Origin: Candidatus Aenigmatarchaeota archaeon
Lineage (GTDB): Archaea > Aenigmatarchaeota > Aenigmatarchaeia > Aenigmatarchaeales > DAIDAN01
Length of the DNA: 64,000 nt
Assembly (NCBI GenBank): GCA_049303335.1
Contig: JBAQNA010000022.1
Coordinates: 1,135-65,134, forward strand
Direction of reading: 5' to 3'
The translations under genes were made by a program, and so were the position numbers. Of the stretch, positions 21,677 to 29,190 are shown piece after piece. The notes under the pieces are model-generated. The model was not told the origin of the DNA. It ran no database searches and was given only the letters and a program-made list of their open reading frames with translations. Each line of letters starts with the position of its first letter. Position 1 is the stretch's first letter.

Positions 21677-23848
21677 ATTCCGGTTGATCCTGCCGGAGGT
21701 CACCGCTATCAGGGTTCGGCTTAACCATGCGAGGCAAGATGTTACAATTTCAGCAATGAATTTGTGGCGTCTGTCGTACTGCTCAGTAACACGTAGTTAA
21801 CCTGCCCTTTTCTCCGGGACAATCCCGCGAAAGTGGGGCTAATACCGGATAACTGTCGGATACTGGAATGTTCCAACGGTAAAAGCTTCGGCGGAAAAGG
21901 ATGGGACTGCGGCTGATTAGGCTGTTGTCAGTGTAATGAGCCTTTTTTCTTTCTTAATGCGAAAAATAAAAGAAAGAAATGATAACTTTAAATTTTCAAC
22001 AAAACAAAAAGACAATGTGAGTTCAAATGTCGAGAGTAAAACTTCCAAGAATATATTACGGAATTCATTCATGCTGTAAGAATGGAATTCCGGAGTATGA
22101 TGCTATTAAGAATATTGGAATTCCATATTGTCCTGTATGCTTAAATGAATTAGAACCAATGCAAAAAACCATAAATGAAACAAATATTCTTTTTCTGAAG
22201 GAAAGAGGCGTTACAGAACTGACAAACCGATAATCAGTATGGGCCATGAGAGTGGATGCCCAGAGATGCCTTCTGAGACATGAAGGCAGGTCCTACGGGA
22301 CGCAGCAGGTGCGAAAACTTCCCAATGCCTGAAAGGGTGAGGAGGGAACCCTGAGTGGCTGCGCTTTTAGCGCAGTCTTTTGCCTAGTCCAAACAACTAG
22401 GCGAATAAGTGGTGGGTAAGACGGGTGCCAATGAGCTTTTCTTTCAAGAAAGAAAATCTCAATCAAAAGAAAGATATTATAAAGAAAAGTTCTGCACATG
22501 CCGCCGCGGTAATACCCGCGCCACGAGTGGTGATCGCGATTATTGGGCCTAAAGGGTTCGTAGCCGGTTTGGCAAGTTCCTGGTGAAATCTCTCAGCTAA
22601 CTGAGAGGCGTGCTGGGAATACTGCCGGACTTGGAACCGGGAAAAGTCAGAGGTATTCGTCGGGTAGGAGTTAAATCCTTTAATCCGACGAGGACCAACG
22701 GTGGCGAACCAAAATTCGCTGCGTGATTTTAAAGCAATTTAAGCAGCGCATTTTGCGTCAGGGCGTCTGACTGGAACGGGTTCGACGGTGAGGGACGAAA
22801 GCGTGGGGAGCAAATGGGATTAGATACCCCAGTAGTCCACGCTGTAAACGATGTCCGTTTGATGTTGCAAGTCCTATAGGGGCCTGCAGTGTCGGAGCGT
22901 AGGTGTTAAACGGACCGCCTGGGGAGTACGGCCGCAAGGCTGAAACTTAAGGGAATTGGCGGGGGAGCACACAAGGGGTGGAGGCTGCGGTTCAATCGGA
23001 TTCAACGCCGAACATCTCACCAGGAGCGACAGCAGTATGAAGGTCAGCCTGACGGGTTTACCAGACGCGCTGAGAGGAGTTGCATGGCCATCGTCAGCTC
23101 GTACCATGAGGCGTGCCGTTAAGTCGGTTAACGAGCGAGACCCACGCTGTTAGTTGCCACCGCAATCTGCGGATTGCGAGCACCCTAACAGGACCGCTGG
23201 TGAAAAACCAGAGGAAGGAGTGGGCGACGGTAGGTCCGTATGGCCCGAATCTCCTGGGCTACACGCGGCCTACAATGGTTGGGACAATGCGATGCAACGC
23301 CGAAAGGCGAAGCTAACCGCCTAAACCCAACCTTAGTTCGGATTGGGGGCTGAAACTCGCCCCCATGAAGCCGGAATCCCTAGTAAGCGAACGTCATAAA
23401 GCCTTTTTCTTTCTTTAGTTCGAAAATACAAAGAAAGAAAAATGCTTGCCAAAAAGAAAGAAAAAGCAAGCAAGAAAGAAAATGGCATGAGTTCGTTCGC
23501 TGAATACGTCCCTGCTCCTTGCACACACCGCCTGTCAAACCATGCGAATGGATTTTTGGTGAGGCTCTCCCCGCAACCCAGCAATGGGAGCGGCGAAAGT
23601 CGAGCCAAGAGTCTGTAAGTGGGGTTAAGTCATAACAAGGCAGGCAGCAGTTCTATTACCTCGGTGATTAAAGATAGGCGAAAATATCGCTTCGGCGAAA
23701 TGTTTTCAGGAAGGTGAAATGAGAGGTTTTTGCGATAGGGACTGAAAAGGAAAGCGCATAAAAGCGTTAGTACGATTCAATCCGTATCCCGAGCTGCCGT
23801 CTTATGAGAAGGTAGCCCTACCGGAAGGTGGGGCTGGATCACCTCCTT
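21677..23848 (+). rRNA. 16S rRNA, about 2.17 kb, expanded by at least five insertions
   Basis: Starts ATTCCGGTTGATCCTGCCGGAGG and ends GGATCACCTCCTT. Conserved blocks recognised: GCCGCGGTAATAC, GGATTAGATACCC, AAACTTAAAGGAATTGGCGGGGGAGCAC, TGCATGGCC, GAATACGTCCCTGC and CACACCGCC. Inserts at about 21937-22225, 22433-22497, 22705-22775, 23395-23505 and 23665-23800. Confidence 0.9.
22027..22233 (+). CDS. small Cys-rich (zinc-ribbon-like) ORF inside the first 16S insertion
   Basis: 68 aa, with HSCC at residues 15-18 (CC at 17-18) and YCPVC with Cys at residues 35 and 38. Low-GC composition unlike the flanking rRNA. The last codons overlap the closing helix of the insert. Confidence 0.3.
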   Translation: MSRVKLPRIYYGIHSCCKNGIPEYDAIKNIGIPYCPVCLNELEPMQKTINETNILFLKERGVTELTNR

Positions 23849-23947
23849 AAATTTAATAATGTGTACTGCTAACAGAGCACTAAATAAAACTTTCAGAATT
23901 AGACATAAAAAGAGTTGGAATTTTTACACAAATAAGAAGGTGATAAA

Positions 23948-27800: not shown

Positions 27801-29190
27801 AAGCAGGACTGACTGGATTCCGCACATCAAGGAATCCAGAGACGAAAGTCTGGGCTAACGATACGCCGAGTGTTCCTGATGGATTTCGGTGACTTCAGAA
27901 AAGCTACCCCGGGGATACGGGTTGGCGCGGAGCAAAGCGGGTCTTCTTGGAAAAAAATATTAATCTTAAATAGATTTATCGCTAGTTGTAAGATGGTGAA
28001 CAATATGTGTAAAGAATGCGGTGTAACTCTAAATGAATATGAAGAAGCATTAAGAACTATTGAAAGAGTAAAACCTAATTTATTGGAGATGAGCGATACT
28101 GCTCGCGCGGCAGATACAAATTTGCAATTATTGCAAAAACAACATATGAGTCATATCACAACAAAAGATAATTTTTCTTTTTTCACATTTTTCCAGGAAG
28201 GCCCGAAGCCCGTACCAACCCGCCAAATAACCGAGTCGTGGCGGGCGAGAGCTCCTAATTCTCACATCTCTAGATGTATTTCACAGAGAGATGGCAATGA
28301 GCAAATCGACTTTTTGAAATGGGTGATTTTCCGGCTGTTTAACGATGAGCGCATATTCGATTTAGCGAGTTAAACGAATTTTGAAGTAACTGATTTATTT
28401 TTAGAAGTTTTCAGATTTAGAAATACAAGAAATAAGGCAGTTATAGAGAAAATGATAGAAATAATTATGTTAGCCGGAATCCTATTTCAAGACGAGAACC
28501 CGCGCGTTGCTACCTCGCTGTCGGCTCCCCCTCTCCTGGTCGTGCAGTAAGCCCTTTTCTGTATCGAGCGTGCAAAAAGCGCTTGCGGAAAAGGTCCTGA
28601 ATGCGACCAAGGGTACAGGTGTTCACTGGTTAAAAGGGGACGTTAGCTGGGTTCAGAACGTCGTGATTCGTTGTGGGTTTTCATTTTACATGCGAAAGCA
28701 ATATTTCCGGTAAGGCGTGAGCATAATGACTTTACCGTCCCAAAATGAGCGGCACTAGCCGCGATGAATTTAGGAGTAGCTTATGAGTGCTGCCAATTTC
28801 CAGGCAACACGCTTTACCTTTTCAAACTTTCCTGGAATTCAGATGCGATTATCCACATCGAACGACATAGACAGTTCGGTCTTTATCTTCCGAGGGTGCA
28901 AAACCTGACCCGAAGGATGCCCAAGTACGAAAGGAACGTGCATCCGTGGCCACTGGTTGACCGGTTATCGTAATGGTAACGCCGGGCAGCTACGCCATAA
29001 TCGTTAACCGCTGAAGGCATGACAGCTGGAGCTAAATGTTCGGCTGTGCCGAACTAAGCGGGAAACGATCGGGAAAAATAGGTGGATGCTGACGGATAGA
29101 TCATCCGTTTAATGGGGCAGTGGTGTACGCACGAAGCCAAAAGCGACGTGTTCAGCCTTCTGCTCCCAATAGCGCAGTTTCAATTCTCTC
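24900..29190 (+). rRNA. 23S rRNA, about 4.3 kb (ends approximate), with multiple insertions
   Basis: Begins GGCGGATGGCTTGGCTC..GATGAAGG..GCGATAAGC. Conserved blocks recognised: GGAAAGACCCCGTGGAGCT, the CCCCGGGGATA region, GCTGGGTTCAGAACGTCGTGA and CGAACTAAGCGGGAAAC. Insertions at about 26140-26290, 27080-27300, 27660-27740 and 27935-28480. Confidence 0.8.
27993..28373 (+). CDS. ORF inside the 23S domain-V insertion (possible degenerate intron-encoded protein)
   Basis: A roughly 550-nt low-GC insert interrupts the 23S right after the conserved CCCCGGGGATA block. Its longest frame begins MVNNMCKECGVTLNEYEEALRT. No LAGLIDADG motif was recognised. Confidence 0.25.
   Translation: MVNNMCKECGVTLNEYEEALRTIERVKPNLLEMSDTARAADTNLQLLQKQHMSHITTKDNFSFFTFFQEGPKPVPTRQITESWRARAPNSHISRCISQRDGNEQIDFLKWVIFRLFNDERIFDLAS

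Follow-up and report, generated by a model that had tools for sequence, protein, structure and literature searches.

The window analysed here is a 64,000-nt stretch of contig JBAQNA010000022.1 (assembly GCA_049303335.1) from an uncultured DPANN archaeon, Candidatus Aenigmatarchaeota archaeon. It carries a ribosomal RNA (rRNA) operon whose 16S and 23S genes, together with the tRNA-Ala(TGC) gene in the spacer between them, are interrupted by inserts. About 30% of this operon consists of introns of the archaeal, protein-spliced type. An original prediction, made by a model from the sequence without database searches, had put the 16S at about 2.17 kb and the 23S at about 4.3 kb; we measured 2173 and about 4275 nt, and excision of five inserts from the former and nine from the latter leaves normal rRNA lengths of 1506 and 3009 nt. 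Four further tRNA genes and the gene for RNase P RNA lie elsewhere in the window (Table 1).

The genes for rRNA and RNase P RNA were called with Rfam, tRNA genes with ARAGORN and the domains of open reading frames (ORFs) with Pfam. The Rfam alignments of both 16S and 23S fail at large inserts, with misaligned 3' ends. The 16S call ended early because a 172-nt insert (i5) halted the alignment; the true 3' end is GGATCACCTCCT at position 23849. E. coli positions are approximate and come from BLAST alignment to E. coli rRNA, which was too coarse to set junctions directly and was kept for approximate numbering alone. An extra 22 nt in 16S helix 6 (about 21735-21760) belongs to an ordinary variable helix and is not an insert of the kind described below. 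In the 16S the universal C1404:G1497 pair, which tops h44, has changed in a compensated way, with U at E. coli position 1404 and A at 1497. As a side observation, the C1404U signature alone selected 59 GTDB species, chiefly Micrarchaeota, Thermoplasmata and Aenigmatarchaeota.

Relatives were obtained by scanning GTDB genomes for a signature and by a metagenome scan, the latter of which yielded the 23S of a relative. We refer to an Aenigmatarchaeota metagenome-assembled genome (MAG) from GTDB, with its 16S covered to about position 1400, as L014, and to two contigs from Joint Genome Institute (JGI) metagenomes, L115 and L141, which together span the entire rRNA operon, as R2. Farther relatives are L006, L052, L002, L062 and L136. 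Exons of the window and R2 are 99.4% (16S) and 98.3% (23S) identical, and the protein genes flanking the operon have 79-90% DNA identity. The intron-rich architecture recurs in separate assemblies, namely the window (an NCBI MAG), L014, L115 with L141, and the JGI metagenome contig L099.

Splice junctions of the inserts

Every insert was scanned for motifs of the bulge-helix-bulge (BHB) type, defined as two 3-nt bulges around a 4-bp helix with cuts after the second bulge base, and we retained the solutions whose excision recreates conserved rRNA sequence. The original prediction had proposed a search for such 3-4-3 motifs. A perfect 4-bp central helix with 3-nt bulges was found at 13 of the 15 resolved junction pairs, a partly circular count, vs. 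2.2% of random pairs; the remaining two are intron e, with three of four base pairs, and d1, with two. All of these motifs have the tRNA-like geometry, in which pairing joins the 5' exon to the intron's 3' end. The junctions of i2, i3 and i4 are set independently, by relatives in which gap-free alignment shows the site to be empty, and each of the three has a perfect helix. Unconstrained minimum free energy (MFE) folding of 12 introns, each with 14 nt on either side, formed the complete central helix in seven and three of its four pairs in two others, and gave textbook hBHBh' structures for i4, c2 and the T-arm intron of tRNA-Ser.

What excision restores are universal sequences of functional centres. 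Excision recreates GTGCCA^GCCGCCGCGG in the 530 loop, GGGGAT^AAC beside A2451, GTCGTG^AGACAGTTCGG, CATAAC^AAGGTAGCC and the micro-exon AGGTAGCGTAA, which separates b1 from b2 and agrees with the universal GGUAGCG(A/U)AA of H69-H71 (conservation in R2 is 99% over the entire stretch). Removal of c1 recreates the archaeal consensus GGCUGGGGCGGcACGCCC. Introns i2, i5, b1, b2, d1 and f break universally conserved single-stranded or functional-centre sequence, and insert sequence kept at the 530 loop, A2451, H69-H71 or the I-CreI site would be incompatible with a working ribosome.

Insert d is composite. Rfam reads it as a single 563-nt insert, a reading that we rejected because it would delete A2451 and because an internal rRNA-like segment is fully conserved in R2. 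That segment, from 28229 on, matches the archaeal consensus GGGAUAACaGagucguCgCgGGC, and positions 28210-28323 are 100% identical in R2 with flanks of 57-62%. We take it as a mini-exon between introns d1 and d2.

No Rfam family of group I or group II introns matched anywhere in the window, even at E values up to 1. The two ORFs within inserts of the window (126 aa in d, 68 aa in i1) had no Pfam match, LAGLIDADG or otherwise, and the former crosses the predicted mini-exon and is therefore probably spurious. Large introns of L014 and R2 at other sites encode LAGLIDADG endonucleases (PF14528). The 68-aa ORF (22027-22233) lies mostly within a nested insertion of i1, continues into the exon and has a zinc-ribbon-like CxxC...CPVC pattern.

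A hairpin family shared among structural RNAs

The original prediction described the inserts as one style, a pyrimidine run, a loop and the complementary purine run, and the examples that it quoted are present where it placed them (21941-21979, 26145-26187 and 27685-27709). We counted perfect stems, Watson-Crick paired throughout, that have 8 bp or more and a 5' arm rich in pyrimidines. The window held 11; first-order Markov simulations averaged 1.7 and never exceeded 4. Ten of the 11 lie within structural-RNA genes, which make up about 15% of the window. A looser definition (9 bp, with G-U pairs and one mismatch permitted) gave 52 and 48 matches vs. about 60 expected; as this shows no excess, only the perfect stems are informative.

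The description of a single style proved right for about half of the rRNA introns. It fits i1, i2 and i4 in the 16S and a, c2 and e in the 23S, is marginal in b2, and fails for i3, i5, b1, c1, both parts of d, and f. Clustering gave a matching picture, with two subfamilies that take in about half of the rRNA inserts and a remainder that is seemingly unrelated. Subfamily 1 consists of a GAGCTTTTCTTT/AAAGAAAAGCTC hairpin and, after it, AAGCAAAAGAAA, a segment that can be written (C/T)AA(G/T)CAAAAGAAA and to which ATATTAT is often added. Its members are 16S i2, 23S c2, the second intron of tRNA-Ala and the 37/38 introns of tRNA-Ser and tRNA-His, and additionally the 23S trailer and two introns found only in R2. 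Subfamily 2 runs from AAGCCCTTTTC through a hairpin, GAAAAGCGCTTGCGGAAAAG and an A-rich stretch to a closing GAAAAGGGCT; it comprises 23S a and e, the T-arm intron of tRNA-Ser and the D-arm insert of tRNA-Leu, with 16S i1 and i4 as variants. The repeat families D5, D6, D7 and D11 connect introns of 16S, 23S, tRNA-Ser, tRNA-His and tRNA-Leu, the trailer modules belong to D6 and D11, and the 19-mer AAAAGCGCTTGCGGAAAAG is common to introns a and e. The helix next to the BHB is made in every member by the 5' pyrimidine run and the purine run at the 3' terminus, and additional internal purine runs account for the purine richness of these introns. All 11 copies in the window lie in or beside stable-RNA genes, and none lies at any of the approximately 55 protein-gene ends.

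The introns outside the hairpin family look unrelated to it. Several occupy classical homing-endonuclease sites (about 722, 1927, 2449 and 2597) and look like ORF-less remnants of endonuclease introns.

A second module, CGCACGAAAAC-N4-GTTTTCGGCG(N)..CC, was also observed in the window, at 19490-19545, 20035-20065 and 29211-29240. It lies in spacers and nested in introns, is often followed by an AAAAA..GC..TTTTT hairpin, and occurs in both orientations in the window and on contigs L091, L095 and L107.

tRNA genes and RNase P RNA

Inserts of the same style had been predicted in tRNA-Ala, in two tRNA-like genes at 19.6-20.1 kb, in an intergenic element at 13.6 kb and in RNase P RNA, and inserts were found in all of these. 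There are two in tRNA-Ala; the tRNA-like genes are tRNA-Leu(TAG) and tRNA-His(GTG), with two inserts each; the intergenic element is tRNA-Ser(CGA), with three; and RNase P RNA bears a module in its P3 loop. The claim that essentially every structural RNA is affected is a slight overstatement; tRNA-Gly (16501-16571, minus strand) has no insert. On the unspliced window ARAGORN misses four of the five tRNAs. It calls a 75-nt tRNA-Ala only once both introns, each with a perfect central helix of geometry A, are cut out, and tRNA-Ser and tRNA-His likewise need the predicted segments taken out first. With tRNA-Leu, removal of the 37/38 intron alone already gives a truncated tRNA. An ORF listed at 20007-20702 begins inside the tRNA-His intron, and this cytidylate-kinase gene more likely begins past the tRNA, with the ATG near 20158.

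The RNase P P3 loop (30649-30677) bears the hairpin CCCTTTTTGCTGGCGCAAAAAG, with 35 nt of extra sequence in P3, and positions 30655-30680 are identical at 26 of 26 nt to part of the site-520 intron of L014. A BHB intron in P3, where a T-run/A-run pairing would form the central helix and the outer helix would have 7 bp, was considered and found unconvincing, its MFE structure being a plain hairpin. A further unaligned insert of about 40 nt was noted near the 3' end of this RNA (about 30828-30868).

Turnover among close relatives

While their rRNA exons are 98-99% identical, the window, L014 and R2 differ at about 14 intron sites. The 16S has ten sites over the three genomes (E. coli about 155, 264, 520, 622, 722, 801, 977, 1197, 1363 and 1501), two of which are occupied in all three. 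For the 23S, the window and R2 together have 15, with nine common to both and R2 alone filled at about 245, 1143, 2070, 2310, 2433 and 2856. Apart from the sites of i2, i3 and i4, about 11 are filled in relatives only, and the count per operon is 14 in the window and about 22 in R2. Introns common to these two genomes are 57-100% identical, with invariant termini of 12-15 nt; for example, R2 copies of i5 and f are 86% and 87% identical, with invariant and conserved ends, respectively.

Individual sites show how the introns come and go. The site of i2 is empty in L006 at the exact predicted junctions; R2 carries an identical copy there, and L014 a quite different intron that has only the last eight bases in common. 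Intron i3 is missing at the exact junctions in L014, R2 and L006, and i4 in L014 and L006. L006 is also about 170 nt shorter at the site of i5. The site of i1 is occupied in L014 and R2 as well, with conserved ends and a different interior, and part of i4 (23400-23462) has 81% identity over 64 nt to the L014 intron at that site. The site of intron a is filled in L115 too, and R2 has a full-length version of the short intron e. Nested insertions specific to the window were found in i1 (about 131-143 nt, 22012-22142), in intron a, in the tRNA-His intron (about 75 nt, 20008-20085) and in the 23S trailer, where 73 nt are missing in R2. The hairpin family is gained, lost, replaced and nested within the time that separates congeneric species.

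Copies beyond the window

An exact-match metagenome scan with the 19-mer AAAAGCGCTTGCGGAAAAG returned 94 matches. About half have AAGCCCTTTT no more than 70 nt upstream, and on account of this motif such matches were taken as true copies. Metagenomic copies lie in introns of many tRNA genes, 15 of which yield an ARAGORN tRNA after removal of the BHB intron. Intron a is 97-99% identical over 62-71 nt to introns in the metagenomic tRNA genes of L072 and L145 (98.6% over 71 nt for L145). Other copies lie at rRNA sites, two of which are empty or filled with a shorter version in the window.

Thirteen metagenomic copies directly follow the TAA stop codon of a protein gene, always in sense orientation. 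The open frames that they follow have 96-280 codons and, judged by eye alone without a family-library scan, resemble ribosomal proteins S17, L18, S19 and L44e, RNA polymerase subunit D and Rpp29. Many of these gene-end copies are a minimal 35-nt form, TAAGCCCTTTTCTAAAGAAAAGCGCTTGCGGAAAAG, which recurs on different contigs and has a conserved C-C mismatch in its hairpin. A tandem array of at least three minimal copies (AAGCCCTTTTTGGGAAAAAGCGCTTGCGGAAAAGAAAACCCAAG, 44-nt period) was observed on the minus strand of L147 at about 9200-9330. In L125 and L139, sequences on either side of the copy at the S17 gene junction resemble a 12-13-nt target duplication; a consistent target-site duplication was not seen, with none at a second L125 copy or at the introns.

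Among other archaeal 16S loci, only that of L014 has the element; 58 loci (381 kb), from Micrarchaeota, Thermoplasmata and other groups, lack it. A viral origin was considered and found no support: the single match on a viral contig lacks the upstream motif and lies in a G+C-rich stretch, and for these reasons it was read as a chance match. In two Micrarchaeaceae contigs (L021 at about 621 and L038 at about 7593), inserts that start with AAGCCCTTTT(C/T) and end with ...CTTTTCAGGGCTT stand in a seemingly tRNA-like context and may represent a related hairpin-intron family in Micrarchaeota.

Other features of the window

The spacer between 16S and tRNA-Ala (23884-24243) contains an AT-rich insertion of about 270 nt that is absent from R2; it carries an ORF of 84 aa (23948-24202), whose product includes a hydrophobic segment and has no Pfam match. 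Three tandem paralogous ORFs of about 273-293 aa lie at 33674-36308; they repeat every 825 nt or so, share about 75% identity at the DNA level and correspond to repeat families D1, D2 and D4. A very AT-rich region at 39000-40651 (23% G+C at 39-40 kb) encodes a 505-aa DUF5677 protein. A low-G+C island at 51444-55972 (27-32%) holds a type I restriction-modification pair and a transposase. We considered a link between the hairpin family and this transposase and rejected it, as the ends of the latter are unrelated to the element.

Table 1. Positions of the RNA genes, their introns and other features in the window. H is the central helix of the BHB; ^ marks a splice junction; numbers after "E. coli" are approximate.
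Feature	Position	Strand	Length	Details
16S rRNA gene	21677..23849	+	2173 nt	SSU_rRNA_archaea, 1304 bits; 1506 nt minus 5 introns
16S intron i1	21938..22217	+	280 nt	After E. coli 264; h11 loop; subfamily 2-like GAGCCTTTTTTCTTTCTT...AAAGAAAGAAA; geometry A, H TGTA/TACA, h 7 bp
16S intron i2	22431..22499	+	69 nt	530 loop, after A520; subfamily 1; GGGTGCCA^GCCGCCGCGGTAA; H GTGC/GCAC, 4/4 in MFE
16S intron i3	22709..22761	+	53 nt	GGTGGCGAA^GGCG, E. coli 722-729; outside hairpin family; H GGCG/CGTC
16S intron i4	23400..23492	+	93 nt	After E. coli 1363; h43 loop; subfamily 2 variant
C1404U:G1497A pair	23520-23530 and 23630-23640			In 16S
16S intron i5	23637..23808	+	172 nt	CATAAC^AAGGTAGCC, after E. 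coli 1501, between h44 and h45; outside hairpin family; H CATA/TATG
tRNA-Ala(TGC)	24293..24461	+		In rRNA spacer
tRNA-Ala intron 1	24314-24365	+	52 nt	D-arm
tRNA-Ala intron 2	24403-24444	+	42 nt	T-loop; subfamily 1, GAGTTTTTCTAAAAAGCTCAAGCAAAAA
23S rRNA gene	24916..~29187	+	about 4275 nt	LSU_rRNA_archaea; 3009 nt minus 9 introns
23S intron a	26142..26278	+	137 nt	GCGTA^ACAGCGG, after E. coli 1095; subfamily 2 long form, AAGCCCTTTTC...GAAAAGCGCTTGCGGAAAAG...GAAAAAGGCT; H CGCG/CGCG
23S intron b1	27069..27131	+	63 nt	CCGTCTTA^AGGTAGCG, E. coli 1927; H GTCT/AGAT; R2 94% identical
Micro-exon	27132..27142	+	11 nt	AGGTAGCGTAA
23S intron b2	27143..27296	+	154 nt	GCGTAA^TCCCTTGTCG, E. coli 1938; H GCGT/GCGC, h' 9 bp
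23S intron c1	27604..27661	+	58 nt	GGGGCG^GTACGCCC, E. coli 2255; H 4/4, likewise in MFE
23S intron c2	27680..27738	+	59 nt	GAGAGGAA^ATCAAGGGCG, E. coli 2273; subfamily 1; h 9 bp, H 4/4
Composite insert d	27917..28485	+		d1 and d2 around mini-exon
23S intron d1	27917-28228	+	312 nt	GGGGAT^AACCGAG, after U2449
Mini-exon in d	starts 28229	+	about 20-30 nt	AACCGAGTCGTGGCGGGCGAGAGCTCC...; conserved in R2
23S intron d2	about 28256-28485	+	about 227-238 nt	Junctions approximate
23S intron e	28550..28602	+	53 nt	GTGCAGTA^GCGACC, E. coli 2534; subfamily 2 short form; H 3/4 (GCAG/CTGA), likewise in MFE
23S intron f	28666..28868	+	203 nt	GTCGTG^AGACAGTTCGG, E. coli 2597, I-CreI site region; H GTCG/CGAC
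23S 3' trailer hairpin modules	29193..29330	+		Within processing stem; subfamily 1 and nested module CACGAAAAC..GTTTTCGGCGC
tRNA-Ser(CGA)	13554..13800	+		Three inserts; BHB scan, MFE, ARAGORN
tRNA-Ser intron	13594-13656	+	63 nt	37/38; subfamily 1
tRNA-Ser intron	13683-13764	+	82 nt	T-arm; subfamily 2
tRNA-Ser third segment	13772-13784	+	~13 nt	Junctions approximate; ARAGORN calls tRNA-Ser only after its removal
tRNA-Leu(TAG)	19628..19812	+		
tRNA-Leu insert	~19643-19692	+		D-arm; CCCTTTTTTGCTGGCGCAAAAAAGCGCGACCGGAAAAGGG; junctions approximate
tRNA-Leu intron	19719-19763	+		37/38
tRNA-His(GTG)	19880..20136	+		
tRNA-His second insert	near 19893	+	~18-30 nt	
tRNA-His intron	19941-20098	+	158 nt	37/38; subfamily 1
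RNase P RNA	30616..30891	+		Rfam 66 bits, E 4e-16, below gathering score of 84
HsdS	51444-52385	minus		
N6-methylase	52386-54404	minus		
DDE_Tnp_1 transposase	54761-55972			With SWIM zinc finger

Discussion

The inserts are very probably archaeal BHB introns, about half of which in the rRNAs carry modules of a partly shared, mobile hairpin family. The original prediction of a proliferating mini-element or intron family, as opposed to expansion segments, agrees with the BHB motifs, the intolerant sites, the empty sites in relatives and the sequences common to different RNA classes. The best-supported route of removal is ordinary splicing by the tRNA-splicing endonuclease (EndA) and the RtcB ligase. 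The last six bases of the exon and the last six of the insert would pair as a 4-bp helix between two 3-nt bulges, in the same geometry as at a canonical tRNA 37/38 intron, and the helix formed by the two ends of the insert would stack on one side. EndA would cleave both bulges, RtcB would seal the exons, and the intron would be released. The mobile modular hairpin family would provide the closing helix that presents the BHB, and appears to have spread to sites in 16S and 23S, in several tRNAs and in the spacers of the rRNA operon; it has probably also entered the P3 loop of RNase P RNA.

Several points weigh against this interpretation. The choice of most junctions leaned on the BHB scan, and only three pairs were fixed independently; for this reason the independent evidence carries more weight than the overall count. 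Intron d1 has a relaxed BHB, with a closing helix of CGGGTTGG/CCAACCCG and only two of the four central pairs, and the junctions of d2 are approximate. Low-complexity runs inflate apparent similarity, and consequently the family claim was built on the mixed-sequence parts GGTAACGAACTTGTA, AAGCGCTTGCGG and AAGCAAAAGAAA..ATATTAT. The P3 module of RNase P folds as a simple extended hairpin with a weak BHB, and in this model it may be retained in the mature RNA. Neither an EndA nor an RtcB gene was among the 19 window ORFs that the Pfam scan covered, most ORFs of the window lying outside that scan. Finally, we infer excision (strongly), the enzymes and the mode of spread from DNA alone.

Two alternatives are improbable. 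A metagenome-assembled genome and misaligned 3' ends of both rRNAs in Rfam could suggest a non-functional pseudo-operon or an assembly artefact, but this is hardly credible when independent assemblies have the same architecture, exons are 98-99% conserved beside protein genes at 79-90%, and the 16S holds a compensated pair change. It is only slightly less improbable that the inserts are expansion segments of the kind seen in the rRNA of Asgard archaea or eukaryotes, which grew in place and are retained in the mature ribosome. Such segments would account for the position of i1, i4, c2 and e at tolerant helix tips (the loops of h11 and h43 and hairpin loops in the 23S), for the plain stem extension in RNase P P3 and for inserts that diverge faster than the core. 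Retention of i2, i5, d1, f (GTCGTG^AGACAG) or b1 and b2 with their 11-nt micro-exon is, however, incompatible with function, and the BHBs at 13 of 15 junction pairs, the presence or absence of inserts between genomes with 99% identical exons, and the same sequences inside D- and T-arms of tRNAs all argue against expansion segments.

Splicing being the preferred reading for the inserts, the nature of the hairpin modules is a separate matter. They could primarily be a DNA-level repeat of the Aenigmatarchaeota, resembling miniature inverted-repeat transposable elements (MITEs) or the repetitive extragenic palindromes (REPs) and interspersed mosaic elements (BIMEs) of bacteria, or a retro-inserted repeat, that lands 3' of AA; copies in essential RNA genes would then survive by forming or evolving a BHB, the intron being a by-product, as with eukaryotic introners. 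We regard this as a real possibility, to be held tentatively. It would explain the sense-only copies after TAA, the minimal form on different contigs and its array in L147, and the modules that are nested, lie in rRNA spacers or form mosaics with a second module of both orientations; A-rich tails and the possible duplication at the S17 junction fit as well. Of the features of a MITE, the hairpin arms serve as inverted repeats, and a duplication candidate exists at one locus only (L125, L139). Yet every window copy is at a stable RNA, target-site duplications are not consistent, the only transposase in the window has unrelated ends, and no reverse transcriptase was among the window ORFs scanned. 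Nor can target duplication provide an intron 3' segment complementary to its own upstream exon. A cellular function of the conserved hairpin, kept by selection (a protein site, a signal for RNA 3' ends or stability, or a folding insulator), is unlikely. Its sequence is unchanged on contigs whose 16S is 10-20% different (L062, L136), in a search that itself required the 19-mer; its orientation relative to transcription and its position after stop codons are constant, the C-C mismatch of the minimal hairpin is conserved, and the closing helix abuts the BHB in every member. Selection would not readily permit copies to be gained and lost between near-identical genomes, subfamilies to be swapped at site 520 without apparent consequence, or interiors to diverge as fast as they do (57-80%), and the module is dispensable for the splice-fold in about half of the introns.

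A reading that joins these elements, and that we offer as a possibility short of probable, is that the modules are a non-autonomous mobile element of the Aenigmatarchaeota, an archaeal "introner" that enters transcribed DNA 3' of AA and in sense orientation. Copies would last at the TAA stop codons of protein genes and within genes for tRNA, rRNA and perhaps RNase P RNA. In the RNA genes, the closing helix and four bases that are complementary to the upstream exon would make the element a substrate for the tRNA-splicing endonuclease. If so, the gain of BHB introns would be ongoing and proceed at a high rate, given about 14 differences among three genomes, and these archaea would offer a tractable system for the origin of protein-spliced introns. 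Empty sites, replacements and nested copies between near-identical genomes make the mechanism open to comparative genomics and RNA-seq.

The introns also have practical consequences. Universal primers are defeated, with both the 515F/530-loop site and the 1492R region interrupted. Annotation is defeated as well, as Rfam shortens both rRNAs, ARAGORN misses most of the tRNAs and RNase P RNA falls below its gathering score. Consequently, surveys under-count such DPANN lineages, and their MAGs seem to lack tRNAs.

Comparison with known systems

In eukaryotes, introners and MITE-derived introns are cases in which a short non-autonomous repeat makes many introns and carries what splicing needs. Here, too, a short repeat yields many introns; unlike introners, it would depend on an endonuclease and a ligase, its targets are stable RNAs, and DNA transposition is only a possible route of its spread. 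Bacterial REPs and BIMEs are imperfect palindromes of about 35 nt that follow stop codons, form mosaics of modules and tandem arrays, and are restricted to lineages. The minimal copies of about 35 nt past stop codons, the mosaics, the tandem array and the restriction to a lineage seen here are much alike. We know of no REPs inside rRNA or tRNA genes and of none that are spliced, and, unlike in REP systems, no RAYT-like (REP-associated tyrosine) transposase was found here.

Our search of the literature on rRNA introns of DPANN archaea and Aenigmatarchaeota and on BHB "introners" found no description of the hairpin family, and no report of an intron family spanning rRNA, tRNA and mRNA ends or of such an intron density in Aenigmatarchaeota. 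DPANN archaea are known for many disrupted tRNA genes and for endonucleases of broad specificity (PMC5829648). In bacteria of the Candidate Phyla Radiation, rRNA insertions are of group I type or encode endonucleases (PMC11270868). Those bacteria are likewise a small-genome, episymbiont-type lineage with rRNA interrupted at many sites, while the inserts described here are BHB introns with no ribozyme signature by Rfam.

The rRNA of Thermoproteales contains BHB introns that include short hairpin-only forms and closely spaced pairs, and introns at different loci are reported to be unrelated (Jay and Inskeep 2015, PMC4496867). As in Thermoproteales, the introns of the window have a BHB at their junctions, interrupt highly conserved rRNA sites and occur in pairs only a few exon bases apart; short ORF-less hairpin introns exist beside LAGLIDADG ones (here in L014 and R2), and sites near 722, 803, 978 and 1205 recur. 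The differences are that the host here is of a mesophile-like DPANN lineage, that density is higher (14 per operon, and about 22 in R2), that introns of the window have no recognisable endonuclease ORF, and that one family is common to different loci and RNA classes.

As far as the work is represented in PMC4090602, intron families that are alike at different positions are known only for the tRNAs of Thermoproteales (Fujishima 2010), and these sequence-similar tRNA introns are the only precedent for the spread of archaeal BHB introns, which have relatives in the tRNA introns of eukaryotes. The likeness lies in similar sequences at different positions, which imply recent spread, and in several introns per tRNA gene; by the measure of a transposing family used there, similar introns were found here at different positions of different RNA genes. 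In comparison with the tRNA introns as that source presents them, the family described here has a defined modular hairpin and extends to 16S, 23S, spacers and probably RNase P RNA, and relatives carry copies at the 3' ends of protein genes. What sets this archaeon and its relatives apart is one recognisable family in 16S, 23S, tRNAs and spacers, and in relatives at mRNA ends, apparently caught in mid-spread.

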